Shown in pieces: positions 2,312-28,844 of a DNA stretch of 39,797 nucleotides. The stretch is from Minisyncoccia bacterium. GTDB taxonomy: Bacteria; Patescibacteriota; Minisyncoccia; UBA6257; GWB1-50-10. How positions within the stretch are numbered: the first letter of the stretch is position 1; every line of letters starts with the position of its first letter. Where the stretch lies: contig JBMFLB010000002.1 of NCBI GenBank assembly GCA_049971465.1, positions 1 through 39,797 on the forward strand. Reading direction: 5' to 3'. The notes beneath the pieces were generated by a model that saw only the letters and a list, made by a program, of their open reading frames with translations, did no database searches and was not told the origin of the DNA. The position numbers and the translations under genes were made by a program.

Positions 2312-2396
2312 GGTGGGTTGCGCCGAATGGTAAGGCACCGCTCTCGAAAAGCGGAGTCTCGTAAGAGACTTAGAGGTTCGAATCCTCTACCCACCG
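2312..2396 (+). tRNA. tRNA-Ser (anticodon CGA), long variable arm
   Basis: Acceptor GGTGGGT/ACCCACC. Anticodon arm CCGCT ctCGAaa AGCGG. Variable arm GTCTC gtaa GAGAC. T arm AGAGG ttcgaat CCTCT. Discriminator G. 85 nt, no encoded CCA. Confidence 0.9.
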
Positions 2397-2398
2397 CT

Positions 2399-3025
2399 AT
2401 GATAAAAAAATTATTAAAATTTGCCATTCTTATTACTGTAATTATTCTTATTGCTATTTATTTGCCAAAATTTTTTAATCATCCTTCTCAAACAAAACCA
2501 GTAAAAATTAATTGGGATAATATAATTAATAATGGTATTAATGCTGTACAAACAACTACTTCTCATTTTGCTTCTAGCACAAAAAATAAAATTAATTCTT
2601 TATACAGCAACGCCTTTAACACATTAAAACAAAAAACCAATGAAGAATTATCAAATTTAGGAAAAATAATATCAAATTTTGGCAATAGTTTAATAACTTC
2701 ATCATCAGATATAAATATTTCTAATCTTCCCAATACTAATATTCCTAATACTAATATTGCAACAACTGTTAACAATAGTGCTGGAAATATAAGTTATTAT
2801 TTTATTGTATTTAAAAACCAACCTTTTAGTTTATCTATTAATAACAATATAAATTATAATATTGATTGGGGTGATAATACTAAAACAAGCGGCAAAACAT
2901 CTACCACAACAAAAATTATAACGCATAGTTGGCCACAATCTGGAATTTATTCAGTAAACATGATATTACAAAATTCTAATGCCTCAACATCAACTTCAAT
3001 AACATTTTATATCAATGTACAATAA
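2399..3025 (+). CDS. membrane-anchored surface protein with a PKD-like C-terminal domain
   Basis: ORF track gives 2318..3025, but its first 27 codons lie inside tRNA-Ser. ATG 2399 gives MIKKLLKFAILITVIILIAIYL (TM anchor). The C-terminus YNIDWGDNTKTSGKT..ITHSWPQSGIYSVNMIL matches the WxFGDG...HxY..GxYxV pattern of PKD domains. Confidence 0.55.
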   Translation: MIKKLLKFAILITVIILIAIYLPKFFNHPSQTKPVKINWDNIINNGINAVQTTTSHFASSTKNKINSLYSNAFNTLKQKTNEELSNLGKIISNFGNSLITSSSDINISNLPNTNIPNTNIATTVNNSAGNISYYFIVFKNQPFSLSINNNINYNIDWGDNTKTSGKTSTTTKIITHSWPQSGIYSVNMILQNSNASTSTSITFYINVQ

Positions 3026-4025
3026 AAATATGACCATGAAACAAATTGTAATTACCGGAATTCAACCTAGCGGAAAATTACATATTGGCAATTATATTGG
3101 CGCAATTAAAACTTTTTTAACAATACAAAATAATAAAAATTATCAGCCAATTTTTTTTGTTGCTGATTATCATTCTATTACTGAAACATATGATTTTAAA
3201 GAAAAACAAAATATGATTTTAGATCTCATTGTAAACATGCTTGCTCTTGGATTAGACACAAAAAAAACATTATTTTTTTTACAATCACTAGTGCCAGCCC
3301 ATACTGAACTTGCTTGGCTATTAAATTGTTTTACTCCATTAGGCGAAGCAAAACGAATGACTCAATTTAAAGAAAAATCAGAGCATCAGCCAGAAAATAT
3401 AAATTTAGGATTGTTAACTTATCCTGTTTTAATGGCTGCTGATATTTTATTATATGACGCTCAATTAGTTACAATTGGTGATGATCAATTACAACATTTA
3501 GAATTAACACGAACATTAGCAAGAAAATTTAATAGTAAATTTGGAAAAACATTTATTGAGCCACAACCACTTTTAACTTTGGGATCAAGAATTATGAATT
3601 TAAATAATCCACTTAAAAAAATGTCGAAATCTACACCAAATGGATGTTTATTTCTTGATGATCCTCCTAATATTATCGAAACTAAAATTAAATCGGCAGT
3701 TACTGATTCTGGCCATGAAATAAAATATGATCCAACCAACAAAGCGGCAATTAGCAATTTAATAGCAATTTATCATGAAATAACCGGATTAGATATAAAA
3801 AAAATAGAAAAAAAATTTAGTAATAAAAGTTATTTAGAATTTAAAAAGGATTTAATTAATCAATTAATTAAATTTCTTCAACCATTTCAAGCTAATAAAA
3901 AATTATTATTAAAAAAACAAATATCAATTAAAAAACTAATTAAAGAACAATCAAAAAAAGCAAATAAAATTGCTAATAAAAAATTACAACTTGTTAAAAA
4001 GAAAATTGGATTAAATTTTTCTTAA
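3015..4025 (+). CDS. trpS: tryptophan--tRNA ligase
   Basis: Class I signatures are present: GIQPSGKLHIGNYIGA (HIGH-type) and KKMSKS. The size is about 330 aa. In-frame ATGs at 3030 and 3036 are alternative starts that avoid overlap with the upstream gene. Confidence 0.9.
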   Translation: MYNKNMTMKQIVITGIQPSGKLHIGNYIGAIKTFLTIQNNKNYQPIFFVADYHSITETYDFKEKQNMILDLIVNMLALGLDTKKTLFFLQSLVPAHTELAWLLNCFTPLGEAKRMTQFKEKSEHQPENINLGLLTYPVLMAADILLYDAQLVTIGDDQLQHLELTRTLARKFNSKFGKTFIEPQPLLTLGSRIMNLNNPLKKMSKSTPNGCLFLDDPPNIIETKIKSAVTDSGHEIKYDPTNKAAISNLIAIYHEITGLDIKKIEKKFSNKSYLEFKKDLINQLIKFLQPFQANKKLLLKKQISIKKLIKEQSKKANKIANKKLQLVKKKIGLNFS

Positions 4026-7000
4026 TCCAATCCAAAGATCACTGTCATTTATTTTAGTTTGTAATTCCGCAGTAAATTTTTCGCCTTTTTTTAATTCTAT
4101 ATTTTTTGCATTAACTTCATTTTTTAATTTTTTTTCAAACTTATTAATAATATGTTGTATTTCTTCGGATCCTTCAATCATCAAATCAATATTGTCTTTA
4201 AATTGCAATCCACTATCTTGTCGAAAATCTTGAATTATTCTTACTAAATCTCTAAATATTCCTTCTTCTAATAACTCATGAGTAATGCGGGTATCTAATA
4301 TAAATTCTTCAGCTAAATCTTTTTTAATATCAATATCTTTAACATTAATTTCTTCAGATAAAATTTGTATTAATGAATCAAAATCTTCAGTTGTTAATTT
4401 AATATCTTTAAACAAATTAACATTTAATTGTAAATTGCCTAATGGTTGTCTAAGTTTAATACCAGCTTCTGATCGTTTAGCTAAAACATTAGAAGCAATT
4501 TTTTGAATTAAATTCATAGCAAATAACAAATCATCATCAATAAATAATTTATTAACTTTAGGCCAATTTTCTAAATGGACCGATAAAGATTTTTTATGAT
4601 CAAAAGTTTGATATAAAGATTCAGCAAAAAATGGCATAAATGGAGCAATTAATTTACTAAATTCTAATAACACATAGCCCAATACTGCCGATGCTTGTTC
4701 ATAGTCATCTGAGGAGATAGGTTTTTGAAATCTTCGTCGCGATCTTCTAATATACCACCGTGATAAATTATCAACAAAATCATAAATTTTTCTTGTTGCT
4801 GAATAAACATCATATTCTTTTAAGTCATTAGTAACATCTTTAACTAATTTATTAAACAAAACCAAAAGCCATCGATCTAATATATTATTTAATTTTTCTT
4901 TACTAATATCTTTATTACTAAATTGTTCAACATAAGTCCAATAAAAAACATAAGAGTTATAAATAATTGAAACAAATTGTCTAAAAATTTTAACTAAATC
5001 TTGTTCATCAAATTTTTTTGCATCAGCCGGAGCATTAACTGAATAAAAATACCAACGCACAACATCGCTTCCATATTTATTTATCATTGACCACGGATCA
5101 ACAATATTACCTTTAGATTTAGACATTTTTTGACCATTTTTATCTAATACCAATCCAAGAGTAATAACATTTTTATACGCCGGACCTTTATCTAATAATG
5201 TGGATACTGCTAACAATGTATAAAACCAACCGCGGGTTTGATCAATGCCCTCACTTATATAATCAGCTGGAAAATCTAATATCTCCTGTTTTTTAAAATC
5301 AAATGGATAATGATTTTGAGCAAAAGGCATTGAACCAGAATCAAACCAAACATCAGCAAGTTCTGGTATTCTTTCCATTATTCCTTTACATTTTATACAT
5401 TTAAATTTTATTTCATCAATAAAAGGACGATGTAAATCACAAATACCAAATTGATTGCGAGGCAAATTATAAAAATCAAATTCAATTAATTGAGCTGGTT
5501 GAATAAAACTATTTTTATTGATTGAAGAATGTTTTTGAAGCAATGCTTCTTCTTCATCCCAACCAAACGCAACTGTTAATATCATCCAAATTGTATATTC
5601 GTGGCTGACAATAAGAATTTTTTTGTTTTTATATTTTGTTTCTACATCATTTAAAAATTCATAAACTCTTTTAGCAAGATCATTTAAATTTTCACCATGA
5701 GGAGGATTTTTATAAAATTTTTCTTGTTCATTTTCAAAATATTTATGGTAACTATCCGGATTGCCGCCATTAAAATCGCCAACATTTATTTCTCTTAATC
5801 GTGAATCAAAAATAACTTTTTTGTTTAATTTTTTAGCAATTATTTCTGCTGTTTGTTTGGTTCTTAAAAAATCAGAGGAAAAAATTAAATCTATTTTTTT
5901 ATCCTGCAATTTCTTTGCAATATTTTCAATTTGATTTATTCCTTTTAAAGTTAAAGGATATAAATCTTTATCAGCTGGATTACAATTTACAATGTTTTTC
6001 AACAAAGTTTCTGATTCACCATGACGCAAAACAAAATAATGATTAGTAGACTTTCCTGTTTGTTCTGCTAATGTTTTTCTGCTATCAATAACAATTTGAT
6101 TGCCACATTTTTTACATTGCCATACTGGTAATGGTGTGCCCCAAAATCTTGCCCGTGAAAAATTCCAATCTTTAATATCTCTTAACCATTCACCAAATCG
6201 CCCATTTTTTATATATTCTGGGATCCAATTTATTTTTTTATTATTAGCAATTAATTTATCTTTAACTTTTGACATTCCAACAAACCACGATTGTTTTGCA
6301 TAATATAAAAGCGGTGTTTTGCAGCGCCAGCAAAATGGATATTCATGGGTATAAGCTTCTTTCTTTAATAAATAATTTTTTTCAACCAAAATGTTTAAAA
6401 TTTTATTTTCTGTTTCTAAATCTTTAACATAAAGTCCAGCTAAATCATTTAATTCAGCAATAAATTTACCTTGTTCATTTACTGTATGATATTGAGGTAA
6501 TCCAATTTTTTTACCAAGCTGAAAGTCTTCTTCACCATACATAACAGCAGTATGTACTACGCCCGTACCATCTTCCACTGAAACAAAATCAGCAGGATAT
6601 ATCTTATAACTTTTATTAGATTTTAATTTTTTAACATAAAACAATGGCTCATATCTTAATCCAATCAAATCACTACCATTATATTTTTGAATGATTTTAT
6701 AATTTTGATTAATAACTACTAATCTTTTTTCTGCTAAAATATAAAATTCATTGCCAACTTCAATTTTTACATATTTTATTTTTGGATTTATTGCTAAAGC
6801 AACATTGCCTGGTAAAGTCCAAGGAGTAGTTGTCCAAGATAAAATAAAAGTATGATCATTAATTTTTGTATTACCAATTTTTTGATTTGCTAATAATTTA
6901 AATTTAATAAACACTGATGTTTCAGTAACAGTATCATAACCTTGAGCAACTTCATGGGATGATAATGATGTCCCACAGCGCGGACACCAATGAACAATCT

Positions 7001-7526
7001 TATAATCTTGATAAAATAATTTTTTGTTCCAAATTTTTTTAATAATCCACCATAATGTTTCAATATATCGATTGGTATAGGTAATATAAGGATGTTGTAA
7101 ATCTAACCAAAATCCAATTCTTTTAGTAATATTTTCCCATTCTTTTTTATAAGACCAAACTGATTCTTTACATAATTTATTAAATTCAGCAATACCAAAC
7201 TGTTCAATGTCCTTTTTTGTTTTAAATCCTAATGTTTTTTCTACTTCTAATTCAACTGGCAAACCATGAGTATCCCACCCACTTTTCCTAGGAACATAAA
7301 AACCTGACATTGTTTTAAAACGTAAAATAATATCTTTAAAACTTCGCGCTAAAATATGATGAATTCCCGGCTTACCATTAGCAGTTGGCGGTCCTTCAAA
7401 AAAAACAAATTTTTTATGATTTTTATTTTTTTCTAAACTTTTTTCAAAAACTTTATTTTCTTCCCACCAATTTAAAATTTTTTCTTCTATTGCTGGTAAA
7501 TTAAAATGATCAATATTTTTTAACAT
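4011..7526 (-). CDS. ileS: isoleucine--tRNA ligase with an inserted histidine-phosphatase domain
   Basis: 1171 aa. It has PPTANGKPGIHHILAR (HIGH), the editing-domain motif TTTPWTLPGN, KMSKSKGN, and Zn-knuckle Cys pairs (CPRCG, CWRCK, CKKCG, CIKCKG). Residues about 494-686 carry histidine-phosphatase motifs (see findings). Confidence 0.95.
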   Translation of the reverse strand: MLKNIDHFNLPAIEEKILNWWEENKVFEKSLEKNKNHKKFVFFEGPPTANGKPGIHHILARSFKDIILRFKTMSGFYVPRKSGWDTHGLPVELEVEKTLGFKTKKDIEQFGIAEFNKLCKESVWSYKKEWENITKRIGFWLDLQHPYITYTNRYIETLWWIIKKIWNKKLFYQDYKIVHWCPRCGTSLSSHEVAQGYDTVTETSVFIKFKLLANQKIGNTKINDHTFILSWTTTPWTLPGNVALAINPKIKYVKIEVGNEFYILAEKRLVVINQNYKIIQKYNGSDLIGLRYEPLFYVKKLKSNKSYKIYPADFVSVEDGTGVVHTAVMYGEEDFQLGKKIGLPQYHTVNEQGKFIAELNDLAGLYVKDLETENKILNILVEKNYLLKKEAYTHEYPFCWRCKTPLLYYAKQSWFVGMSKVKDKLIANNKKINWIPEYIKNGRFGEWLRDIKDWNFSRARFWGTPLPVWQCKKCGNQIVIDSRKTLAEQTGKSTNHYFVLRHGESETLLKNIVNCNPADKDLYPLTLKGINQIENIAKKLQDKKIDLIFSSDFLRTKQTAEIIAKKLNKKVIFDSRLREINVGDFNGGNPDSYHKYFENEQEKFYKNPPHGENLNDLAKRVYEFLNDVETKYKNKKILIVSHEYTIWMILTVAFGWDEEEALLQKHSSINKNSFIQPAQLIEFDFYNLPRNQFGICDLHRPFIDEIKFKCIKCKGIMERIPELADVWFDSGSMPFAQNHYPFDFKKQEILDFPADYISEGIDQTRGWFYTLLAVSTLLDKGPAYKNVITLGLVLDKNGQKMSKSKGNIVDPWSMINKYGSDVVRWYFYSVNAPADAKKFDEQDLVKIFRQFVSIIYNSYVFYWTYVEQFSNKDISKEKLNNILDRWLLVLFNKLVKDVTNDLKEYDVYSATRKIYDFVDNLSRWYIRRSRRRFQKPISSDDYEQASAVLGYVLLEFSKLIAPFMPFFAESLYQTFDHKKSLSVHLENWPKVNKLFIDDDLLFAMNLIQKIASNVLAKRSEAGIKLRQPLGNLQLNVNLFKDIKLTTEDFDSLIQILSEEINVKDIDIKKDLAEEFILDTRITHELLEEGIFRDLVRIIQDFRQDSGLQFKDNIDLMIEGSEEIQHIINKFEKKLKNEVNAKNIELKKGEKFTAELQTKINDSDLWIGLRKI

Positions 7527-7534
7527 ATTTTAAT

Positions 7535-7540
7535 ATTATA
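7535..7540 (-). promoter_or_regulatory. -10 box (TATAAT on the minus strand) 8 nt upstream of the ileS ATG
   Basis: The minus strand reads tttTATAATattaaaatATG. The whole divergent ileS/M16 intergenic region is 24 bp (7527-7550). Confidence 0.4.
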
Positions 7541-7550
7541 AAAAAATGAA

Positions 7551-8864
7551 ATGATTAGCAAGAAATTTGATTTTTTATTATGCCTCTTTATAATTGAAAC
7601 AATGATTGCTCAACAAATAGTTTTAGATAATAAATTAAAAATTATTATTATCAACCAACCACAAAGCACAACTACTACTGCTATGGTTTTTGTTAAAGCC
7701 GGGTCATTGTATGAAACAAAAAATATAAATGGAATTTCTCATTTTCTTGAACATTTATGTTTTAAAGGAACAACTAAAAGACCAAATCAATTAGCAATTG
7801 CCACTGAATTGGAAAAGTTAGGATCAGAATATAACGCACTTACAAGCCATGAATATACTGCTTATTTTATAAAATCGCAAAATAAAAATTTAGATAAAAT
7901 TCTTGATATTCTTGCTGATATTTATTTAAATTCGCTATTTAATCCTCAAGATATTGAAATGGAAAAAGGACCAATTATTGAAGAAATAAATATGTATGAA
8001 GATATTCCAATGAGCAAAGTACAAGAATTATTTTTAGCGCTTGTTTATGGTGATCAACCAGCGGGATGGCCAATTGCTGGTACTAAAGAAAATGTATTAA
8101 AAATTAATCAAGAAAAAATATTAAATTACCGTCAAGCTCATTATTCTGCCCAAACAACAACAATTGTTATTGCTGGAGGTTTTGAAAATAAAAACATTAT
8201 TCAAGATATACAAAATCTTTTTAAAAACATAAATACCAATCCAACTATTCCTAAACAGCAAACAATTGAAAATCAAAATAAACCACAATACAAAATATTA
8301 AATAAAAAATCTGATCAAACTCATTTAGTTTTAGGATTTAAAACTACAAACATTTTTGATGATGATAAATATGCGCTTGATTTATTAGCTAATATGTTAG
8401 GAGGAGGAATGGGTTCAAGATTATTTCAAAAAATCAGAACACAATTAGGTATTGCCTATTATATTAAATCATCAACTGATTTTTTTACTGATCATGGTTT
8501 GTTAACAATATCAGCTGGAATAGATGGCAATAAAATAAATGATGCAATTAATATTATTTTGGATGAATGTAATAGTTTTAAAACCAATGTGCCAAGTTCA
8601 GAATTACAAAAAGCAAAAGAATATACCATTGGCCAGTTGCTTTTATCATTAGAAACATCTGATGAAGTTTCTTTATATTATGGCTTACAAGATGCAGTTG
8701 GCTTACCATTAATGAACCCAGATGAATTAATACAAAAAATAAATATGGTAACAGAACAAAATATTCAAAATGTTGCTAAAAAATATTTTACCAATGATCG
8801 ATTAAATTTAGCAGTACTTGGACCATTGATAAATCAAAACTTTGATGGCATATTAAAAGTATAA
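7551..8864 (+). CDS. M16 (pitrilysin/insulinase) family zinc peptidase
   Basis: It has the inverted zinc motif HFLEHLCFKGT (HxxEH) near the N-terminus, and the about 430-aa two-lobe size is typical of M16B. An in-frame ATG at codon 18 (MIAQQ) is an alternative start. Confidence 0.85.
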   Translation: MISKKFDFLLCLFIIETMIAQQIVLDNKLKIIIINQPQSTTTTAMVFVKAGSLYETKNINGISHFLEHLCFKGTTKRPNQLAIATELEKLGSEYNALTSHEYTAYFIKSQNKNLDKILDILADIYLNSLFNPQDIEMEKGPIIEEINMYEDIPMSKVQELFLALVYGDQPAGWPIAGTKENVLKINQEKILNYRQAHYSAQTTTIVIAGGFENKNIIQDIQNLFKNINTNPTIPKQQTIENQNKPQYKILNKKSDQTHLVLGFKTTNIFDDDKYALDLLANMLGGGMGSRLFQKIRTQLGIAYYIKSSTDFFTDHGLLTISAGIDGNKINDAINIILDECNSFKTNVPSSELQKAKEYTIGQLLLSLETSDEVSLYYGLQDAVGLPLMNPDELIQKINMVTEQNIQNVAKKYFTNDRLNLAVLGPLINQNFDGILKV

Positions 8865-9871
8865 TGGAAAAATTATCTTTTAATATTGAATGGAAAAGTC
8901 TTTTTCGAATAGGAATATTTATATTAGCAGCAATATTAATTTATCTTGCGCGCTCTGAAATTCTTGCTTTATTAATTGCAATAACATTATCATTAGGTTT
9001 AGATCCAATTATTGATTGGTTAGAAAAAAAAGGAATACCACGAATATTAGCTGTGATATTTTTATTAATTGCTTTAATAACAATTGTTGCTACCACTGTT
9101 TATTTAATAATTCCAATAATTTTTTCTGAATTAAAAATAATTATTGCCCAATTACAAACACCAATTGAAAAAATGTTTGGCATTAATATAAAAACAATTA
9201 ATTTTTTACAATTTACTCAATTAATCAATGAAAAAATTAATCTTCAAAGTTCTAATTGGGATTTAATTTTAAATATTTCTCATAAAACAATTTTAACAAT
9301 TGCAACAATAATGATGACTTTTTATTTAATGCTCACTAAAAATGGATTGGAAAATTTTTTAAAAGATATATTGCCAAATAGCGTGGAAAGAAAATATTTA
9401 ATTATTTTTCATAGCTTTAGCAATAAAATTAGAAAATGGCTTTTATCTCAAATTATTTTAAGCATTACTATTGGTATTGTTACGGGAATAGGAGTATGGA
9501 TAATTGGCGTTCCTTACCCTCTTTTAATTGGTTTTATTGCTGCGCTTTTTGAAATAATACCATTTATTGGGCCAATAATGGTCGGAGCGATTGCTTTTAT
9601 TATTGCTATGACCCAATCTTTTATTCTTGGAATTTATACGATTGTCTTATTTATTATTATTCACCAATTAGAAAATCACATTTTTGCACCATTAATTTTA
9701 GGAAAAACGATGAAAATTCATCCGGTTATAGTTGTATTTAGTTTATTAGCCGGAGCAAATATTGCTGGCATTGCTGGAATAATATTATCAGTCCCAGCAA
9801 CAGTATTAATTCAAGAAATTATAAATGATTTTTCTAATCGCAAAAAAATACATCAAAATTTAGGTTTTTAA
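8864..9871 (+). CDS. AI-2E family transporter (PerM/UPF0118-like)
   Basis: A polytopic membrane protein of about 335 aa. Its C-terminal half is family-like: HQLENHIFAPLILGKTMKIHPVIVVFSLLAG...GIILSVPATVLI. The start overlaps the upstream stop (TAATG). Confidence 0.75.
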   Translation: MEKLSFNIEWKSLFRIGIFILAAILIYLARSEILALLIAITLSLGLDPIIDWLEKKGIPRILAVIFLLIALITIVATTVYLIIPIIFSELKIIIAQLQTPIEKMFGINIKTINFLQFTQLINEKINLQSSNWDLILNISHKTILTIATIMMTFYLMLTKNGLENFLKDILPNSVERKYLIIFHSFSNKIRKWLLSQIILSITIGIVTGIGVWIIGVPYPLLIGFIAALFEIIPFIGPIMVGAIAFIIAMTQSFILGIYTIVLFIIIHQLENHIFAPLILGKTMKIHPVIVVFSLLAGANIAGIAGIILSVPATVLIQEIINDFSNRKKIHQNLGF

Positions 9872-9875
9872 TTTT

Positions 9876-11306
9876 ATGTCAAAAATTTTAATTACAACAG
9901 CAATTGATTATGTTAATGATGTGATTCATATTGGGCATGCTTACCAAAAAATAGCAGCGGATGTTTTAGCGCGTTATTATCGTAATAAATTTGGTACTAA
10001 TAATGTCTTTTTTGTCACTGGCACTGATGAACATGGACAAAAAGTCCAAGAAACAGCTCAAAAAAATAATAAAACACCTCAAGAATTTACTGATTATATT
10101 TCCTTATTAGATGAACAACAACAAGATTATTTAAATATTTCTTATAACCGTTTTATTAGAACTACTGATAAAGATCATATAAAAACAGTTACTCAATTTT
10201 GGGAAAAATCACAAAAAAATAATGATATTTATTTAAATGATTTTGAAGGATTATATTGTATTGGTTGCGAATCTTTTAAAACAAAAAGTGAATTAATAAA
10301 CAACCATTGTCCTTTGCATCCAAATTTAGAAATAAAATTAATTAAAGAAAAAAATTATTTTTTTCGTTGGTCAAAATATAAAAATTTTTTAAAGGATATT
10401 ATAACTACAAATGAATTAACAGTATTACCAGAAACAAGAAAAAATGAGGTTTTAGCTTTTATTGATAAAATAGAAGATATAAGTATTTCGCGATCTAAAT
10501 CAAACTTGCAATGGGGAATTAATGTACCTAATGATGACTCACAAGTTATTTATGTTTGGTTTGATGCTTTAATCAACTATTTAACTGCTGGTTTAGCAAT
10601 TAATTTTTGGGATAACAACACAAAAATTATTCATTTATTAGGAAAAGATAATTTACGCTGGCATGCTTTACTTTGGCCCGCAATGTTAAAAAGCGCTGGC
10701 TATCGGTTACCAAATATTATTTATGCTCATGGATTTTTAACTATTAATGGACAAAAAATAAGCAAATCATTAGGTAATATTATTCGTCCATCAGAATTAG
10801 TACAAACTTATAATTCTGATACCATTAGATATTATTTAATGCGTCATACCAGTTTTGAAAATGATAGCGATTTATCATTAGAAAAAATAAAAAATATTTA
10901 TAATGGGGAATTGGCTAATGGATTAGGTAATTTTGCATCACGGGTTTTAGCTTTAACTTTAAATCAAAAATTAAATTTACAAGATACCAATAAAGAAATA
11001 GTAAACAAAACAAATGATTTAATTTATAAGGCTAACAATTATATTGAACAATTTAAATTTAGCGAAGCATTGGGATTAATTTGGGAATTTATTTCATTTG
11101 GAGATAATTATATTAATCTAAATAAACCATGGGAAAATAAAAATATAAATATTTTAACTGATTTAATTTATATGTTACATAATATAAATATATTAATTCG
11201 ACCATTTTTACCTGATACTAATTTAAAACTAAATCAATTGTTACCAATAAAAAACAATATAATATTTGTTACCAACAAACAAACTCTTTTTCCAAAAATA
11301 AAATAA
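9876..11306 (+). CDS. metG: methionine--tRNA ligase (short form, no C-terminal tRNA-binding domain)
   Basis: It has TTAIDYVNDVIHIGHAYQKIAADVLARY (HIGH-type), a CxxC...CPLH zinc knuckle, and KISKSLGN (KMSKS-type). Confidence 0.9.
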   Translation: MSKILITTAIDYVNDVIHIGHAYQKIAADVLARYYRNKFGTNNVFFVTGTDEHGQKVQETAQKNNKTPQEFTDYISLLDEQQQDYLNISYNRFIRTTDKDHIKTVTQFWEKSQKNNDIYLNDFEGLYCIGCESFKTKSELINNHCPLHPNLEIKLIKEKNYFFRWSKYKNFLKDIITTNELTVLPETRKNEVLAFIDKIEDISISRSKSNLQWGINVPNDDSQVIYVWFDALINYLTAGLAINFWDNNTKIIHLLGKDNLRWHALLWPAMLKSAGYRLPNIIYAHGFLTINGQKISKSLGNIIRPSELVQTYNSDTIRYYLMRHTSFENDSDLSLEKIKNIYNGELANGLGNFASRVLALTLNQKLNLQDTNKEIVNKTNDLIYKANNYIEQFKFSEALGLIWEFISFGDNYINLNKPWENKNINILTDLIYMLHNINILIRPFLPDTNLKLNQLLPIKNNIIFVTNKQTLFPKIK

Positions 11307-11311
11307 TAAAA

Positions 11312-12145
11312 ATGGATATAAAATTTTTTGATGTTCATGCCCATATAAATTTTGAAATATTTAAAAACGATTATAAAAATATAATTGCACAAACATTTGA
11401 AAATAAAATTGGAATCATAACCAGCGGAACTTATAAATATACTTCTCAAAGCGCGGTAACAATAGCAAATGAATATTTAGATCAACCAATTTATGCAACT
11501 ATTGGATTGCATCCTATTCATTGTAATCCAGAAAATTATATTGATCACAATGAAACATCAAAAACAATAGAACCAGAAATCAAATTTGATTTAAATTTTT
11601 ATCATAATTTAGCATTAAATCGAAAAGTTATTGGCATTGGTGAATGTGGATTAGATTTTTATCACATTGATATAAATAATAAAAATTTTATTAACAATCA
11701 AAAAAACAATTTTCAACAACAAATTAAATTATCATTTACAATTAAAAAACCTTTAATTATTCACTGCCGTAATGCATTTATTGAATTAATTCAAATTTTA
11801 CAAGAAAACAAAAACTTACTATTAAATTATCCTGGAATTATTCATTTTTTTTCTGGCACTAAAGAACAAGCAAAACAATTGTTAAATTTAGGATTTAGTT
11901 TTAGTTTTGGAGGAGTTATAACTTTTACCAATAATTACAATGAACTAATAAAATTTATACCAATTGAAAATATTTTGCCTGAAACCGATGCTCCTTATGT
12001 TGCCCCAGTGCCTTATCGCGGGAAAAGAAATCAACCTAATTATGTAATTGAAACAATAAAACAAATAACAAAAATTAAAAATATTTCTATTGAAGATTAT
12101 TCTCCTATTTTATTAAATACTGTACATAAAATTTTTAAAATTTAA
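11312..12145 (+). CDS. tatD: TatD family metal-dependent hydrolase
   Basis: It has FDVHAHINF, GECGLDFYH, IIHCRNAF, IIHFFSG and ETDAPY, the canonical TatD metal-ligand motifs in the correct order. Confidence 0.85.
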   Translation: MDIKFFDVHAHINFEIFKNDYKNIIAQTFENKIGIITSGTYKYTSQSAVTIANEYLDQPIYATIGLHPIHCNPENYIDHNETSKTIEPEIKFDLNFYHNLALNRKVIGIGECGLDFYHIDINNKNFINNQKNNFQQQIKLSFTIKKPLIIHCRNAFIELIQILQENKNLLLNYPGIIHFFSGTKEQAKQLLNLGFSFSFGGVITFTNNYNELIKFIPIENILPETDAPYVAPVPYRGKRNQPNYVIETIKQITKIKNISIEDYSPILLNTVHKIFKI

Positions 12146-12152
12146 TTTTTTA

Positions 12153-12181
12153 TTGTAAAAATTCAAAACTAATTTTATAAT
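12153..12181 (+). promoter_or_regulatory. sigma70-like promoter for leuS (TTGTAA-17 nt-TATAAT)
   Basis: TTGTAA at 12153-12158, a 17-nt spacer, TATAAT at 12176-12181, then 7 nt to ATG 12189. Confidence 0.5.
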
Positions 12182-12188
12182 AATTTTA

Positions 12189-14576
12189 ATGAATTCTTAT
12201 CAACCCAAAAAAATAGAAAAAAAATGGCAAAAAGAATGGGAAAAACATCAAATTTACAAAGCAAAAGATTTTGCTAAGAAGAAAAAATGGTACTCATTAA
12301 TTGAATTTCCTTATCCTTCTGGCGCTGGATTGCATGTTGGCCATATTCGTAGTTTTACCGCAATGGATATTATATCCCGCAAAAGAAGAATGGAAGGATA
12401 CAATGTTTTATATCCAATTGGTTGGGATGCTTTTGGCCTTCCAACTGAAAATTATGCAATAAAAACAGGAATAGCACCAGATGTTGCTACTAAAACAAAT
12501 ACCAATAATTTTAGAAGACAGTTAAAAAGCCTTGGCTTTTCTTTTGATTGGTCAAGAGAAATAAACACAACTGATCCTAAATATTATAAATGGACCCAAT
12601 GGTTGTTTTTGCAGTTTTTTAAGAATGGATTGGCTTATAAAGCAGAAGTTCCAATAAATTGGTGTCCTCGCTGCAAAATTGGTTTAGCAAATGAAGAAGT
12701 AATCAATGGAAGATGTGAACGGTGCGGCGCAGAAGTTGAACAAAAATTAAAATCGCAATGGATGCTAAAAATAACTGCTTATGCGGAAAAACTTTTAGCA
12801 GGATTAAAAACTGTTGATTTTTTACCAGAAATAAAAACACAACAAATCAATTGGATTGGCAAATCAGAAGGTTCAGAGATAGATTTTCCAATTAAAAATA
12901 TTAATATTCAAATAAAAATTTTTACAACTCGTCCTGATACTTTATTTGGAGCAACTTATTTAGTTTTAGCGCCAGAACATAAAATAGTAAGTGAACTAAA
13001 AAAATATATTTCCAATAAAAGGGAGGTTGAAAATTATATTAATCAAACATTAAAAAAAACAGAAGAAGAAAGAAAATCAGAAGGAAAAATAAAAACCGGA
13101 GTTGAATTAAAAGGAATTACTGCTTTAAACCCTGCTAATAAAAAAGAAATTCCTATTTGGATTGCTGATTATGTATTAGCATCTTATGGTACTGGAGCAA
13201 TTATGGCAGTTCCAGCGCATGATCAAAGAGATTTTGAATTTGCTAAAAAATTTCATTTACCAATTATTGAAGTAATAAAAAAAGATGGTGCAGAACTTCC
13301 TTATGAGGGGGATGGAATTCTTATTAATTCAAATAAATTTAATGGTTTAAATTCTTTAGAAGCAAAAAAAGAAATAACAAAATTTGTTGGTGGCAAAACA
13401 ACAATTAAATATCATTTAAGAGATTGGGTATTTTCACGCCAACGTTATTGGGGTGAACCAATTCCTATAATTAATTGCCAAAAGTGTGGATATGTTCCTG
13501 TGCCAGAAAAAGAATTACCAGTAATTTTACCTAAAATTAAGAATTATCAACCAACCGATGATGGAGAATCTCCTTTATCTAAACTTTCATCATGGGTAAA
13601 TACTAAATGTCCTTCTTGTGGCGGCAAAGCAAAAAGAGAAACAGATGTAATGCCAAATTGGGCTGGTTCAAGCTGGTATTTTTTAAGATATGCTGACCCA
13701 CATAATAATAAACAATTTGCTTCTTATAAAAAATTAAAATATTGGCTGCCAGTAGATTGGTACAATGGTGGGATGGAACATGTTACATTACATTTGCTTT
13801 ATTCCCGTTTTTGGAATTTATTTTTTTATGATTTAGGATTGGTGCCTTTTAAAGAACCTTATAAAAAAAGAACCGCTCAAGGCATGGTTTTAGGTGAAGG
13901 CGGGATTAAAATGTCAAAATCAAAAGGAAATGTAATAAATCCTGATATAATTGTAAAAAATTATGGCGCTGACACTGTACGACTTTATGAAATGTTTATG
14001 GGACCATTTAATCAAGCAATTGCCTGGGATACAAAAGATATCGAAGGATTAAAAAGATTTTTATTAAAAGTATGGAATATTGCATTTACTAAAAAAATAT
14101 TAAAAGTAAAAAATGAAAATTTAGAAACATTAATAAATAAAACAATTAAAAAAGTTAATGATGATATTGAATTAATGTCTTTTCATACCGCAATTAGCGC
14201 TTTAATGATTTTTGTAAATGAAGTACAAAAAAACGAAATTATTCCTCAAACCGTTTGGGAAAAATTTTTAATTATTTTAGCGCCATTTGCCCCTCATATT
14301 ACCGAAGAGTTATGGTTTCATCTTGGCCATAAAAAATCAATTCATTTAAGTTCTTGGCCAATTTATAATGAAAAAGAATTACAAAAAGAAAAAATTTATA
14401 TAATTATCCAAATCAATGGAAAATTTAAAGACAAAATATTAGTAAAACAAAATTTAAATCAAAAAGATATTGAAAAATTATCATTACAATCACCAAAAAT
14501 TCAAAAACTTTTGCAAAATCAATCAATAAAAAAAATAATTTTTGTACCAAATAAATTAATAAACTTTTTAATTTAA
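12189..14576 (+). CDS. leuS: leucine--tRNA ligase
   Basis: It has FPYPSGAGLHVGHIRSFT (HIGH), the CP1 editing motif TTRPDTLFGATY, Zn-knuckle Cys pairs, and KMSKSKGN. 795 aa. Confidence 0.95.
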   Translation: MNSYQPKKIEKKWQKEWEKHQIYKAKDFAKKKKWYSLIEFPYPSGAGLHVGHIRSFTAMDIISRKRRMEGYNVLYPIGWDAFGLPTENYAIKTGIAPDVATKTNTNNFRRQLKSLGFSFDWSREINTTDPKYYKWTQWLFLQFFKNGLAYKAEVPINWCPRCKIGLANEEVINGRCERCGAEVEQKLKSQWMLKITAYAEKLLAGLKTVDFLPEIKTQQINWIGKSEGSEIDFPIKNINIQIKIFTTRPDTLFGATYLVLAPEHKIVSELKKYISNKREVENYINQTLKKTEEERKSEGKIKTGVELKGITALNPANKKEIPIWIADYVLASYGTGAIMAVPAHDQRDFEFAKKFHLPIIEVIKKDGAELPYEGDGILINSNKFNGLNSLEAKKEITKFVGGKTTIKYHLRDWVFSRQRYWGEPIPIINCQKCGYVPVPEKELPVILPKIKNYQPTDDGESPLSKLSSWVNTKCPSCGGKAKRETDVMPNWAGSSWYFLRYADPHNNKQFASYKKLKYWLPVDWYNGGMEHVTLHLLYSRFWNLFFYDLGLVPFKEPYKKRTAQGMVLGEGGIKMSKSKGNVINPDIIVKNYGADTVRLYEMFMGPFNQAIAWDTKDIEGLKRFLLKVWNIAFTKKILKVKNENLETLINKTIKKVNDDIELMSFHTAISALMIFVNEVQKNEIIPQTVWEKFLIILAPFAPHITEELWFHLGHKKSIHLSSWPIYNEKELQKEKIYIIIQINGKFKDKILVKQNLNQKDIEKLSLQSPKIQKLLQNQSIKKIIFVPNKLINFLI

Positions 14577-15969: not shown

Positions 15970-16908
15970 ATGAAATGGCATTTATTGATTCTGGTTATTT
16001 TATTTTTATTAATTAACTTTTATTTTATTCAATTAGTTTATGCTTTTGATACTAGACTTATAAATAATATTGGACAAGGAGCAACACCGCCAGAATTAGT
16101 AAAAAATATTTATAATTTTTCTATGTTAGTTGGCGGCATCATTGCAGTAGGAGTTATTGTTTATGCAGGAATCTTAAGAATTTTTTCATCAGGCAATCCT
16201 AAAAAAATACAAGAAAGCAATTCCTACATTACTGGAGCAATATTTGGCTTGTTATTATTGTTTGGTGCATCTATATTATTTAATACAATTAATCCAAGAA
16301 TAGCTAATTTAACTTTTGCTATGTTTCGAATCCAAGTGCCAAATCCTCCACCTCGTCAATCACAGGTTGAATCTTGGCCCCAACCATTATCAGATCCATC
16401 ATACCAACTTGATGATGCTACAGCGCGATGTATGCTTCAAGCACGAGGCATCTCAGTAAATAAATCAAATTGTACCTATATTGGTCAAACAAACTGTACC
16501 AGTTTAGATGGGATAACCGCAACAGCAGTTCATGGCGCAATCCAACTTGCTCAACTTGCTAAAAAAAACAATAAAAACATAACCATAACTGGCGGCACTG
16601 AATATTGGCTGCATAAAACTCATGGGCCAGGAAAATCAATACTTGATATCCATTATGACAAAGATTTAATTAATGATGTTAAAAATTTACAAAGCGGAAA
16701 TACGATTAACTCTTGGATTTGTGAAAAAGGTTCAAAAGATTTTGGCCAAGCTTGTGATACAAATGACACTGATCATTTTCATATTGTTTTTTCTGGAAAT
16801 TATTCAATTAATGATTTAAAGCGTTTATATGGTTCTACTTGGCTCCATTGTCTTTACAACGATAAAGAGAGTGATTCTGCAAATACAAATAATTCTGGAT
16901 CTAACTAA
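15970..16908 (+). CDS. VirB2/TrbC-type pilin-like N-terminal module fused to a possible LAS/M15-type zinc hydrolase domain
   Basis: Signal/TM helix, then two helices (FSMLVGGIIAVGVIVYAGILRIFSSGNPKK...ITGAIFGLLLLFGASILF) as in the small pilin-like genes at 24822-26134. After a Pro-rich linker comes a Cys-rich domain with ITITGGTEYWLHKTHGPGKSILDIH and DTDHFHIVF (H...D plus HxH). Confidence 0.5.
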   Translation: MKWHLLILVILFLLINFYFIQLVYAFDTRLINNIGQGATPPELVKNIYNFSMLVGGIIAVGVIVYAGILRIFSSGNPKKIQESNSYITGAIFGLLLLFGASILFNTINPRIANLTFAMFRIQVPNPPPRQSQVESWPQPLSDPSYQLDDATARCMLQARGISVNKSNCTYIGQTNCTSLDGITATAVHGAIQLAQLAKKNNKNITITGGTEYWLHKTHGPGKSILDIHYDKDLINDVKNLQSGNTINSWICEKGSKDFGQACDTNDTDHFHIVFSGNYSINDLKRLYGSTWLHCLYNDKESDSANTNNSGSN

Positions 16909-24821: not shown

Positions 24822-25244
24822 ATGGTGAAAGAACTAAAAATTAATAATTTAATATTTTCAATCATTTTCTTATCAATAATATTTTTGCCTTTCATGGCTC
24901 AAGCAATAAACATTTGGAATGGTACCGGAGGGTGTAACAATGCTTCCAGTGCTTCTGCCAGTTGCAATGTCTGCGATGCAATTATTGTAACACAAAATAT
25001 AATTAATCAAATTTTAGTCCCATTAGCTTTAAGCGGAGCTACAATTATGATACTGGTTGGTGGTATAATGATGATGACCTCAAGTGGAAGCGAAGAAAGA
25101 TTAAAAAAAGCAAAAGGAATTTTATTTAATGCAATAATAGGATTAGTAATTGCATTAGTTGCTTGGGTAATCGTTAATGAAATATTACATGTTCTTGTCG
25201 ATGCTCCTACCGCCAGTTGGTGGGCAACAATTCAATGTCAATAA
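24822..25244 (+). CDS. VirB2/TrbC-type 'T4SS pilin-like' small membrane protein, paralog 1
   Basis: Signal peptide (FLPFMAQA), a Cys-containing segment (GGCNNASSASASCNVCDA), then two helices separated by a charged loop: LALSGATIMILVGGIMMMTSSGSEERLKKAKGILFNAIIGLVIALVAWVIV. Confidence 0.6.
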   Translation: MVKELKINNLIFSIIFLSIIFLPFMAQAINIWNGTGGCNNASSASASCNVCDAIIVTQNIINQILVPLALSGATIMILVGGIMMMTSSGSEERLKKAKGILFNAIIGLVIALVAWVIVNEILHVLVDAPTASWWATIQCQ

Positions 25245-25774
25245 TGAAAAACACAAAATATATTTTCATAATTTTAATAACAGGTTTAATTTTGATTAAA
25301 CCAATTTTTGCTTTAGCTGATGAAGAATTACAGATAAATTTCTGGTATATCAAAGATATGGAGTGTGTCCCATGTCTTGAGAATGAGGATTGCAATTACA
25401 ACTCCCTCTTGACAAAATATACCAGTGAAACGGTGTGCCTCAACCATCTTCTAGATCTAGAGCAGACATCAGAAGATAGTGGTGTAACTATCAGAACAAC
25501 AACTTATCGACCATCAAGGGGATTACAAAATCCAATAAGTGGAGCTAGTAATGTTTTTGATGTAATAAAAAAAGTAATAAAATGGTTGGTTATAACTGTT
25601 GCGCCAATTTATGTCATAATGATTTTGGTTGGAGCATATCAAATATTATTTTCTGCTGGTGATCCAAAAAAAGTTCTTATTGGCAGAAATACAATAATGT
25701 ATGCTACAATTGCATATGTTATAATATTATTAAGCTGGGGACTGAGTAGTATAGTAGCCAGCTTATTACAATAA
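25244..25774 (+). CDS. VirB2/TrbC-type pilin-like small membrane protein, paralog 2 (longer ectodomain)
   Basis: ATG 25244 overlaps the upstream stop (TAATG). Signal peptide (LIKPIFALA), a Cys-rich ectodomain, then VITVAPIYVIMILVGAYQILFSAGDPKKVLIGRNTIMYATIAYVIILLSWGL. Confidence 0.6.
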   Translation: MKNTKYIFIILITGLILIKPIFALADEELQINFWYIKDMECVPCLENEDCNYNSLLTKYTSETVCLNHLLDLEQTSEDSGVTIRTTTYRPSRGLQNPISGASNVFDVIKKVIKWLVITVAPIYVIMILVGAYQILFSAGDPKKVLIGRNTIMYATIAYVIILLSWGLSSIVASLLQ

Positions 25775-27502: not shown

Positions 27503-27584
27503 GCCCTCGTGGCGGAATTGGCATACGCGTGGCGCTTAGAACGCCATCCCGCAAGGGTTAGAGGTTCGAGTCCTCTCGAGGGCA
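27503..27584 (+). tRNA. tRNA-Leu (anticodon TAG), long variable arm
   Basis: Acceptor GCCCTCG/CGAGGGC (perfect). Anticodon arm TGGCG ctTAGaa CGCCA. Variable arm tCCCgcaaGGGtt. T arm AGAGG ttcgagt CCTCT. Discriminator A. 82 nt, no encoded CCA. Confidence 0.9.
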
Positions 27585-27763
27585 CAGTATTTAACTTTCA
27601 GAAATTTGCCCGACGAGCTCTGGGCGCGTTGCGTTGCAATGTAGGAAAATGCTGGCCCGCCGCCAGATGCCATTTCTTACTCTGGTATTCGCACAAGGAT
27701 GAGAATTCCTTAATTTTAGATTGGATTTTAGTATTTACCTTTTAACTTTGTAATGATATTATG

Positions 27764-27893: not shown

Positions 27894-28844
27894 ATGAAGG
27901 AAGGTTTTGAACAATTTAATAAACAGGTTGAAGGAAAAGAAAAAAAACCACATGAAAGTTTGGAAGAAAAGGAAAAAGCTAAACAAGCTATTCAAAAAGC
28001 CGAAGGATTAAAAGCAAAGATGGAGCAAGAACTGGATGCTCTTTCTAAAAAACTCTGGCAGGAAAAATGGAAACAAATGAATCCAAAAGAACTCGTTTTT
28101 GTTGAAAAAAAGAAAAACTATCAACTCAAAGAAACTCTTAGGAGGCCTAGTCAGGTGTGGGCCCTCGAAGTTCTGCCTGATGATGAGATTATTTCTGGAA
28201 ATGAAAATGGCACCATTGAAATCTTGGAAAAAGATCAACAAGGAAAATATCAAGTCAAAGAAACTCTTGAGAAGGCACATAAAGGCGGGGTGCGGACCTT
28301 CCAAGTTCTATCTGACCATGAGATGGTCTCTGGAGGCGATGATGGCACTATTAAATTCTGGGAAAAAGATCAACAAGGAAAATATCAAGTCAAAGAAACT
28401 CTTGAGGGACCTACAGTACCCTTTAAAGGAGTACCTAGTATTTGCGGAGTAACGGCTCTCGAAGTGTTGCCTGATGAGATTGTTGCTGGATACGAGTCTG
28501 GCGTAATTAGAATATGGAAAAAAGACCAACAAGGAAAATATCAAGCCAGAGAATCTTTAAACCTCGGCCACCAGACTCCTATAGGCAGAACCCCCCTCCA
28601 AGTTCTGGCTGACCATCGGATTGTTGCTGGAGAAGATGATGGCTGGATTCAAATTCTTAAAGAAGATGAACAAGGAAACCTTCATATCCAAGAAAGTATT
28701 AGGGTACCAACTAACACTTGGTTTGACCCTAAGAAACGTCCTTACGAGGTGAATACCCTCCAAGTTCTGCCTGATGGCCGGATTTTTGCTGGATGCGGCG
28801 ATCACGCTATTAAAATCTTGGATGGAGAAAAAGAAAAGATATAA
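27894..28844 (+). CDS. coiled-coil + WD40-like beta-propeller repeat protein (G+C-anomalous)
   Basis: About 70 aa of charged helix (EEKEKAKQAIQKAEGLKAKMEQELDALSKKL), then five 45-50-aa repeats of the form V..L.VLPD..IVSG..DGTIKIW.KD.QGKYQ.KE.L. Examples are AHKGGVRTFQVLSDHEMVSGGDDGTIKFWEKD and VNTLQVLPDGRIFAGCGDHAIKILD. No signal peptide. Confidence 0.7.
   Translation: MKEGFEQFNKQVEGKEKKPHESLEEKEKAKQAIQKAEGLKAKMEQELDALSKKLWQEKWKQMNPKELVFVEKKKNYQLKETLRRPSQVWALEVLPDDEIISGNENGTIEILEKDQQGKYQVKETLEKAHKGGVRTFQVLSDHEMVSGGDDGTIKFWEKDQQGKYQVKETLEGPTVPFKGVPSICGVTALEVLPDEIVAGYESGVIRIWKKDQQGKYQARESLNLGHQTPIGRTPLQVLADHRIVAGEDDGWIQILKEDEQGNLHIQESIRVPTNTWFDPKKRPYEVNTLQVLPDGRIFAGCGDHAIKILDGEKEKI

Follow-up and report, generated by a model that had tools for sequence, protein, structure and literature searches.

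A histidine-phosphatase domain nested in the isoleucyl-tRNA synthetase of Patescibacteria, and its standalone counterpart beside ileS

The type-2 isoleucyl-tRNA synthetases (IleRS2) of known structure, from Thermus thermophilus (Tth; 1ILE and 1JZQ) and Priestia megaterium (8C8U-8C8W), share a full set of domains, and a zinc-binding motif is present in the connective peptide 3 (CP3) subdomain of the Tth enzyme (PMC7191050). The present work concerns an isoleucyl-tRNA synthetase (IleRS) which has this same domain set but which carries within CP3 about 200 extra residues that amount to a second enzyme, a histidine phosphatase (HP) of branch 1. Its gene, ileS, lies on a stretch of 39,797 nucleotides from a Minisyncoccia bacterium (contig JBMFLB010000002.1 of assembly GCA_049971465.1), which is referred to below, at its full length, as “the window”. 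A preliminary description of this DNA, made from the sequence alone, had placed a complete HP domain inside IleRS and taken it for a genuine insertion, and it had proposed profile searches, alignment to type-2 structures, structure prediction and a search of related genomes as checks. It had missed the wide occurrence of the insert, the unusual GXHH signature of the host enzyme, and the existence of a standalone homologue of the insert upstream of ileS, the last of which shifts what needs to be explained.

The principle of nesting a whole hydrolytic domain in a connective peptide of the Rossmann fold is shared with the CP1 editing domain of the class Ia synthetases. CP1, however, is found in every IleRS, ValRS and LeuRS, where it acts on mis-products of the enzyme itself, while the HP insert is restricted to certain lineages, lies in CP3 and belongs to an unrelated superfamily. 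A curated precedent for an IleRS with an additional catalytic domain is provided by ileS_w_GNAT (NF040702), but the domain is of a different kind (an N-acetyltransferase), and the window protein scores 324 bits against that model's cutoff of 1999; no literature on IleRS-GNAT was found. In the RNase H/acid phosphatase of the Rv2228c type (NF005567), a CobC-like HP domain is likewise joined to an enzyme of nucleic-acid metabolism, but as a terminal fusion with another partner, whereas the HP of the window is nested. The phosphatases PhoE, PspA, CobC and GpgP have in common with the insert their fold, with template-modelling (TM) scores of 0.76-0.83, and the catalytic set RHG...R...E...H, and the insert motif RLREI..G.FNG resembles RLREIHLGDWEG of PhoE. 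The insert is nevertheless only 19-25% identical to these enzymes, is shorter, scores below every equivalog cutoff, and is linked to ileS, either nested or adjacent, a linkage that we know of for no enzyme of the PhoE, PspA, CobC or GpgP type. A synthetase with an accessory catalytic domain is a known kind of protein; the conserved two-state linkage of HP and IleRS is the unexpected part. The preliminary description knew of no precedent, and none has come to light since: a literature check, which is incomplete, found no paper describing a phosphatase in or beside IleRS, and two recent structural and phylogenomic papers on IleRS mention neither a phosphatase nor Patescibacteria.

The ileS gene occupies positions 4011..7526 of the window on the minus strand, with its stop codon at 4011-4013, as one continuous open reading frame (ORF) of 1171 amino acids. 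The protein scores 890.6 bits against the NCBIfam ileS equivalog TIGR00392, above the cutoff of 621.4. In Pfam, tRNA-synt_1 is matched in two stretches (E=7e-116) with His_Phos_1 (PF00300) between them, followed by Anticodon_1 and by DUF5915 (E=7e-19), the last of which corresponds to the type-2 C-terminal organisation with ARD2/ARD3 and not to the zinc-binding domain of IleRS1. The best structure matches are likewise to IleRS2 (804 bits for 1ILE and 799 bits for 8C8W, compared to about 350 bits for IleRS1 structures), and the full-length model matches IleRS2 structures in Foldseek with TM scores of 0.78-0.89, normalised by target length. In the alignment to 1ILE, residues 1-489 of the query correspond to Tth 1-479 and residues 697-1023 to Tth 489-821, and the insertion therefore comprises residues 490-696 (5439..6059, minus strand), which stand in place of approximately nine Thermus residues. 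It is made up of an N-side loop, the HP domain, and a C-side “LPRNxxGxx” loop that precedes DLHRP. The preliminary description had given positions 5469-6047, which do translate to residues 494-686 (TNHYFVLRHGESE...IEFDFY) but fall slightly short of the real insertion; the phosphatase motifs and flanking Cys pairs that it had reported are all where it had located them.

The insertion site lies in the distal loop of the CP3 zinc knuckle, between the two halves of the zinc motif. The first Cys pair, C471-K-K-C474, is encoded at 6105..6116 and the second, C710-I-K-C713, at 5388..5399, both on the minus strand like all the features of the gene given below. Among 120 homologues C471 and C713 are invariant, while C474 occurs in 118 and C710 in 119, and both zinc knuckles are kept by the host IleRS. 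In insert-less relatives WxCxxC and DLHRP are 23-29 aa apart, which bears out the earlier statement that only a short linker is usual at this position, compared to 220-229 aa in insert-bearing sequences. No counterpart at the insertion site was found in any solved IleRS by sequence and Foldseek comparison. In one modelling study of Plasmodium IleRS, residues at the base of CP3 adjoin the active site (PMC12077802).

The junctions are alike in all five groups of nested sequences. On the N-side, the second Cys stands 25-27 residues ahead of the Arg of RHG; on the C-side, the last HP strand is followed by the pattern x-x-hydrophobic-P-x-N-x-x-G-x-hydrophobic-D-x-H-R-P. The C-side loop also occurs in some insert-less IleRS (P0273, P0274, P0276, P0280 and, in part, L011 and L012). 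The idea that this “LPxNxxGxxDLHRP” segment derives from the N-terminus of ileS (FSLPEIEEK) by a duplication and deletion found no support, because the similarity is weak and the loop is present in those insert-less enzymes as well.

The remainder of the host enzyme is complete. Residues 1-489 (6060..7526) contain the first half of the Rossmann domain, the CP core, the CP1 editing domain, CP2 and the first half of CP3, and residues 697-1171 (4014..5438) contain the end of CP3, the second half of the Rossmann domain, the anticodon-binding domain and the type-2 C-terminal domains (DUF5915). The editing motifs of CP1 are intact (WTTTPWT at residue 231 and GTGVVH at residue 320), and the KMSKS loop is found at residues 800-804 (5115..5129). 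The class I signature is the non-canonical GIHH (G54-I55-H56-H57; 7356..7367), in which G54, H56 and H57 are invariant among 60 homologues. It is of the GXHH type, in which positions one and three of HXGH have changed places (G/A-X-H-H), as was described in 2023 for hyper-mupirocin-resistant IleRS2 (PMC10485003). From this likeness the whole GIHH-bearing clade is predicted to be resistant to mupirocin. The protein falls far below the cutoff of 1900 bits of the MupA and MupB resistance models, with scores of 779 and 782 bits respectively.

The HP domain itself extends over residues 495-672 (5511..6044), for which a family-specific hidden Markov model gives 250.9 bits. The Pfam search proposed at the outset returned PF00300 over residues 498-661 with E=1.1e-34 and 120.3 bits, well above the gathering threshold of 21.7. 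The catalytic set consists of the RHG motif R501-H502-G503 (6018..6026), in which H502 is the predicted phospho-accepting nucleophile; R555 in SSDFLRTKQT (5862..5864), the second Arg of the phosphate pocket; E579 in RLREI (5790..5792), the predicted proton donor; and H642 in IVSHE (5601..5603), the second catalytic His. Positions R501, H502, R555, E612, R620 and H642 are conserved in all 120 homologues and E579 in 119 of them. The same holds with few exceptions in a more diverse set of 93 aligned HP segments, made up of 92 representatives at 50% identity together with the window's own: the nucleophile His is present in 93/93, R501 in 92/93, R555 in 91/93 and H642 in 92/93, and the acid position is Glu in 88/93 and Asp in 5/93. 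One representative, P0351, is truncated and has none of the motifs, and a few others are substituted at single catalytic positions (R555, for example, by W or K). In close pairs with unsaturated synonymous divergence (dS), the ratio of nonsynonymous to synonymous divergence (dN/dS) is 0.014-0.19 in the insert compared to 0.04-0.10 in the IleRS core; the nested HP is under purifying selection, like its host.

Structure prediction with AlphaFold2 (AF2) gave a confident full-length model (pLDDT 90.3, pTM 0.83), in which the part formed by the insert reaches pLDDT values of 93-97, and the HP domain modelled alone reaches 94.6. The Foldseek scores and identities quoted above for the HP domain refer to 4IJ5, 1H2E, 6NRU and 4PZ9, and the nearest folds are those of PspA, the riboflavin-pathway HFP, GpgP Rv2419c, CobC and PhoE, all of them small-molecule phosphatases. 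At approximately 180 aa the domain is small for its superfamily, and the stretch between E579 and E612 is short.

The assignment of the domain to a characterized family was attempted with curated models for cofactor-dependent phosphoglycerate mutase (dPGM), GpmB, CobC, PspA, SixA and RNase H/acid phosphatase, and no cutoff was reached by either the insert or its standalone homologues. For dPGM (NF038349, TIGR01258 and others), the insert scores 104 bits against a cutoff of 225 with dPGM_arch, where the standalone homologues score 87-102, and 35 against 81.7 with pgm_1. The motif that follows the acid Glu, REINVGDFNG, is of the kind found in PhoE, while the dPGM type has ERHYG. The alpha-ribazole phosphatase CobC (TIGR03162, cutoff 162.9) was rejected at 91 bits for the insert and 88-99 for the standalone proteins, the phosphohistidine phosphatase SixA (TIGR00249) at 33.6 bits against 74.5, and the bifunctional RNase H/acid phosphatase (NF005567) at 79 bits against 326. 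The phosphoserine phosphatase PspA (NF045917) gave 79 bits against 350, yet it is the best structural neighbour. A role as a component of a defence system was also discarded, the insert having no PADLOC match and a standalone homologue only one at chance level. Because none of the curated cutoffs is reached, a function cannot be transferred by homology, and the HP is, as judged from its sequence, an uncharacterised subfamily of the branch-1 histidine phosphatases. Taken with the AF2 model, these comparisons support the view that the 1171-aa product is a bifunctional protein, composed of a complete IleRS2 and an HP that is predicted to be active.

The nested architecture is not peculiar to the window. 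All of the 120 best full-length clusters at 90% identity, drawn from NCBI, JGI, ENA and Logan, have the same architecture, at 50-57% identity and lengths of 1140-1373 aa, and those with names are assigned to Jorgensenbacteria, Wolfebacteria (a genome of 2015), Paceibacterota, Parcubacteria and Minisyncoccia. In an exhaustive search the insert was present in 92 of the 150 best representatives at 50% identity, with identities down to approximately 37%; it is also found in ten species-representative genomes (L001-L010), and when the junction region was used as a query, fragments of IleRS with both PF00133 and PF00300 were retrieved from several sources. All named insert-bearing entries belong to Patescibacteria, mostly to lineages of the Parcubacteria group, and the nested architecture is a stable feature of a large part of that phylum. 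Insert-bearing sequences have been public since at least 2015. In the databases these proteins are often labelled simply “class I tRNA ligase family protein”. The search of relatives, as the preliminary description had suggested, turned up IleRS of both kinds, with the insert and without it.

The closest relatives of the insert outside IleRS are hundreds of Patescibacterial proteins of 186-195 aa which are 40-55% identical to it. These standalone proteins align end to end with the insert, from their first residues (MKLNNxYY, corresponding to ..STNHYF in the insert) to the last strand, and they keep the same catalytic set. They are variously labelled “histidine phosphatase family protein”, “PhoE” and “probable/putative phosphoglycerate mutase”. 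In the first locus inspected the order was argS-HP-ileS, with a spacer of 1 nt, and in the second it was argS-rSAM-HP-PALP-ileS; in both, ileS had no insert. Metagenomes were then scanned with a profile built on the standalone proteins. At least 452 relatives were found, and among the best 80 loci, which were fetched, the HP was nested in ileS in 30 and standalone in 50. Where enough downstream sequence was available, ileS was the next gene downstream on the same strand in 46 of 48 standalone loci. The spacing between the HP stop codon and the ileS start was computed for 49 standalone loci (43 from the scan and six from the comparison of gene contexts). It was negative in 10 and between 0 and 20 nt in 28, which gives 38 loci at 20 nt or less; it was 21-100 nt in 4 and greater than 100 nt in 7. 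These last comprise a gap of 131 nt in L033 and loci with an intervening gene (L015-L018, L070 and L078). The standalone HP is regarded as translationally coupled to ileS.

The nested and standalone states are mutually exclusive at the loci examined. There is no upstream HP, nor a detectable remnant of one, in 36 nested loci; the ileS gene of every standalone locus examined is free of an insert; and the whole window contains a single HP domain. The wider synteny is the same in both states, namely (rplT-infC-smpB)-argS-[HP]-ileS-recO, and in most related loci ileS is preceded by argS and followed by recO. Where this order is disturbed, the HP stays with ileS and not with argS, as in L102 and in L104, the latter of which has no argS at all and retains the HP at ileS. 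In the window, compared to L001-L100, the synteny with argS and recO has been lost, and ileS is flanked by trpS and by an M16 peptidase gene (4011-8864). The link between HP and ileS survives this loss because the HP is nested.

Some of the standalone loci have further genes near the HP. In L102 (3774-4248) a HicB/HicA toxin-antitoxin pair and two small ORFs lie between argS and the HP, which overlaps ileS by 4 nt, and in L104 (5163-6605) the HP is separated from ileS by a radical SAM/SPASM maturase gene and two tiny ORFs. The loci L015-L018 (e.g. L015:4838-7600) have a HydE/BioB-like radical SAM gene before the HP and a pyridoxal-phosphate-dependent (PALP) gene between the HP and ileS. The PALP gene was considered as a clue to the metabolism of isoleucine or threonine and set aside as uninformative, with just a 35-bit match to threonine synthase. 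In L043 (6381-8567, plus strand), ArgRS and a standalone HP share one frame of 729 aa (...GISSPQQMKRIELNNKYYIMRHG...), which suggests either that the HP has been fused to the C-terminus of ArgRS or that a stop codon has been lost. A dedicated search yielded no second case among its best 120 matches, and a recurrent fusion of this kind was therefore rejected, L043 being treated as a singleton or a sequencing error.

The history of the two states was studied with distance trees only. In a neighbour-joining tree built from 917 columns of the IleRS core without the insert (200 bootstraps), one clade with 100% support, clade A, consists of 16 standalone-state sequences (L015-L018, L029, L036, L037, L040, L045, L052, L055, L064, L070, L071, L078 and L083). 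Their IleRS is of a very different subtype, with ...EGWEKFEGNSPHRPWVD... in CP3 and DVGNPWLDAG in place of DVWFDSG, and is separated from the other IleRS by approximately 1.1-1.2 substitutions per site, and the HP gene is still directly upstream of it. In a second clade (89%) the states are interleaved: one subclade (100%) contains 7 nested, 10 adjacent and 2 sequences with neither form, and another (98%) contains 26 nested and 7 adjacent. The two sequences with neither form, L011 and L012, are sister to the nested L080 and L084 at 100% bootstrap and probably represent a clean secondary loss of the HP domain; both (L011:1136-4042 and L012:608-3598) retain part of the “...PIPQNIDLHRP” loop. The interleaving was not explained by mosaic IleRS halves, since the distances between groups are the same whether they are taken from the N half or from the C half.

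The HP sequences do not divide by state. The expectation that the nested HP would form one clade apart from the standalone HP held for the near relatives of the window but failed on the broader set: the HP tree is unresolved, only two alignment columns separate nested from standalone sequences, and nearest neighbours cross the states. The nested HP of L028 and the standalone HP of L033, for example, are 66% identical, while the IleRS cores of the two loci are only 50% identical. An ancient duplication followed by differential loss is not supported, because the nested and standalone forms are not separate clades. The tree of ArgRS from the same loci is incongruent with that of IleRS, which points to recombination between the two genes; ArgRS, which in addition comprises deeply divergent types, was for these reasons abandoned as an organismal marker.

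Possible traces of exchange are seen in the proteins of L077 and L087, whose flanking windows are mostly 93-100% identical while residues approximately 441-720 are only 62-75% identical. At the nucleotide level the identity is 0.67-0.77 in the segment containing CP3 and HP compared to 0.79-0.97 in the flanks, and dS is saturated in that segment only. This mosaic suggests that a cassette was replaced by recombination. The same mosaic pattern was observed between L087 and L097. Together with the incongruence of the ArgRS tree and the nearest neighbours that cross states, the mosaic suggests how a single cassette could have become scattered over the IleRS tree. The geometry of the junctions is identical in all five nested groups, and for this reason a single origin of the CP3::HP cassette is most likely. 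After its origin the cassette would have spread, been lost, or been exchanged by recombination in a recombination-prone argS-(HP)-ileS-recO locus. We conclude from these comparisons that the link between HP and ileS is old and actively maintained and that its physical form has changed several times.

The reading that we tentatively favour, while putting its chance at a little less than even, is that the HP is an accessory enzyme dedicated to IleRS, and not an unrelated neighbour, which acts on a small phosphomonoester tied to charging or to its control. Hydrolysis would proceed by way of a phospho-His502 intermediate, with E579 as the proton donor, and the nested domain and the standalone protein would do the same job. 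The conserved trait would then be the partnership of HP and IleRS, with the two produced 1:1 and probably in physical contact at CP3 or in its vicinity, where the base of CP3 adjoins the synthetic site, and nesting would be the covalent version of this partnership. Candidate substrates would be, in order of rank, a nucleotide monophosphate, 3'-phosphonucleotide or product of the adenosine monophosphate (AMP) type; a phosphorylated tRNA-Ile end; and a phospho-amino acid or phosphoglycerate. The preliminary description had speculated on a nucleotide by-product or a phosphate at the tRNA end. Several points weigh against this proposal. Insert-less IleRS with no adjacent HP exist (L011, L012 and P0273), and these show that IleRS does not need the HP in cis. 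Nothing in the fold or sequence neighbours of the HP, which are ordinary small-molecule phosphatases, indicates RNA binding, and with every curated cutoff out of reach no substrate is transferred by homology. A role in disposing of the by-products AMP and pyrophosphate is not obviously specific to IleRS among 20 synthetases, and the TrpRS, MetRS and LeuRS of the same window have no such domain. Gene order at translation loci is, moreover, generally conserved in Patescibacteria, and adjacency alone could be a matter of inheritance. A more demanding proposal, which we regard as rather doubtful, is that Patescibacterial IleRS cannot do without the HP as its partner, which would be a non-covalent subunit in some lineages and nested in CP3 in others, with an activity mechanistically coupled to the charging of isoleucine and a cassette that moves between ileS genes. 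Such a partner might repair or clear a phosphorylated tRNA-Ile end or a nucleotide at the synthetic site, or, in another version, the charging state of IleRS might gate a phosphatase step of central metabolism.

The most serious alternative to a dedicated accessory enzyme, and one that has a considerable though lesser chance of being right, is that the HP is an unrelated housekeeping enzyme acting on small molecules (a phosphatase of the phosphoserine type, a sugar-phosphate or nucleotide phosphatase, or a phosphoglycerate mutase) which merely resides in an argS-HP-ileS-recO operon. A rare local rearrangement would have carried it into a permissive loop of IleRS, where it would have been fixed by drift in small symbiont populations with loss of the upstream copy, and co-expression would be the only link between the two activities. 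The metabolic phosphatases among its fold and sequence neighbours, and the names that databases give to its homologues, are in keeping with this, as are the IleRS that have neither insert nor adjacent HP, the single copy per locus (which fits a single required dose), the recombination of the locus, and the absence of such a domain from the other synthetases in the window. It accounts less readily for the fact that the HP keeps company with ileS after the loss of argS or of the wider synteny, the window included, for the very tight spacing between the HP stop and the ileS start, and for an association that holds across two very different IleRS subtypes. The nested cassette has also persisted, with strong purifying selection acting on it, and recombination may have helped it to spread; and in the established practice of comparative genomics a fusion that accompanies a conserved neighbourhood is usually read as the sign of a functional link.

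Other explanations are considerably less probable. The HP could be a regulatory protein phosphatase like SixA, PGAM5 or Sts-1, whose target might be IleRS itself, phosphorylated by a HipA-type kinase or toxin that acts on synthetases, so that tethering would give immediate protection in cis. Protein-directed members of the histidine-phosphatase superfamily do exist, toxin kinases are known to target the synthetases GltX and TrpS, and the small size of the domain, its short E579-E612 stretch and the weak match to SixA would be compatible with such a role. We consider it improbable, because the SixA score stays below the cutoff of that model, the best structural neighbours are small-molecule enzymes, no kinase is conserved at the examined loci, and PADLOC does not recognise the insert. 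That the HP fold serves as a structural or binding module with no turnover, for instance in gripping a tRNA phosphate, is more improbable still: the truncated P0351 and the few catalytic substitutions, such as those of R555, would fit such a module, but almost all of approximately 210 diverse sequences retain the nucleophile His, the two Arg, the acid Glu and the second His, the low dN/dS matches that of the synthetase core, and the standalone homologues keep the same set. There remains an artefact, that is, an assembly chimera, a mis-joined contig or an intein-like selfish element, to which we give practically no credence. Hundreds of assemblies of independent origin (NCBI, JGI, ENA and Logan) show the same architecture and junctions at identities of 37-57%, the frame is continuous, and composition is flat along the ileS gene in a window with a G+C content of approximately 27%. 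A Pfam search of the 1171-aa protein found no Hint, intein or homing-endonuclease domain and identified synthetase and His_Phos_1 domains only. For the family as a whole an artefact is effectively refuted, and the earlier judgement that this is a genuine in-frame insertion into an intact IleRS is upheld by the more than 120 independently assembled clusters, the conserved catalytic residues, the purifying selection and the confident AF2 model.

The rest of the window was surveyed for context. A region of 12 kb (3015-14576) contains four genes for class I synthetases: in addition to ileS, these are trpS (3015-4025), metG (9876-11306), which encodes only 476 aa, and leuS (12189-14576), all three on the plus strand. 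The trpS and ileS genes converge, and their 3' ends share 15 nt (4011-4025). A cluster of four tRNA genes is found at 1339-2397, with Ala-GGC on the minus strand and Val-GAC, Arg-CCT and Ser-CGA on the plus strand; a listed ORF at 2318-3025 begins within the tRNA-Ser gene, and its true start must accordingly be further downstream. Three ORFs on the plus strand (15970-16908, 24822-25244 and 25217-25774) have a type IV secretion pilin-like domain (PF18895), and such proteins are typical of surface appendages in Patescibacteria. The only kilobase that is clearly richer in G+C (0.40 compared to approximately 0.27) contains a WD40-repeat-like ORF (27894-28844, plus strand), which follows closely on a tRNA-Leu(TAG) gene at 27503-27585, and this region may be foreign DNA.

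For the evolution of proteins, the locus presents a case in which a whole enzyme has been set seamlessly into a zinc-knuckle loop and has been lost again in some gene lineages. The two states also constitute a natural experiment, since a matched pair of insert-less IleRS and free HP can be compared to the nested enzyme. A practical consequence is that labels such as those of the standalone homologues and of the insert-bearing IleRS could mislead the automated metabolic reconstruction of Patescibacteria. The synthetases are among the best-studied of all enzymes, and new biology has come to light more than once through their accessory domains, editing domains and tRNA-binding appendages among them; here a second, unrelated active site has been placed in the catalytic core of IleRS and maintained throughout a large radiation of minimal-genome organisms. 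Because such organisms tend to keep only the genes that they need, the linkage of HP and IleRS provides a testable lead to a function in the candidate phyla radiation (CPR)/Patescibacteria, and if the HP were indeed an obligate partner coupled to the charging of isoleucine, it would be a new kind of synthetase-associated enzyme.

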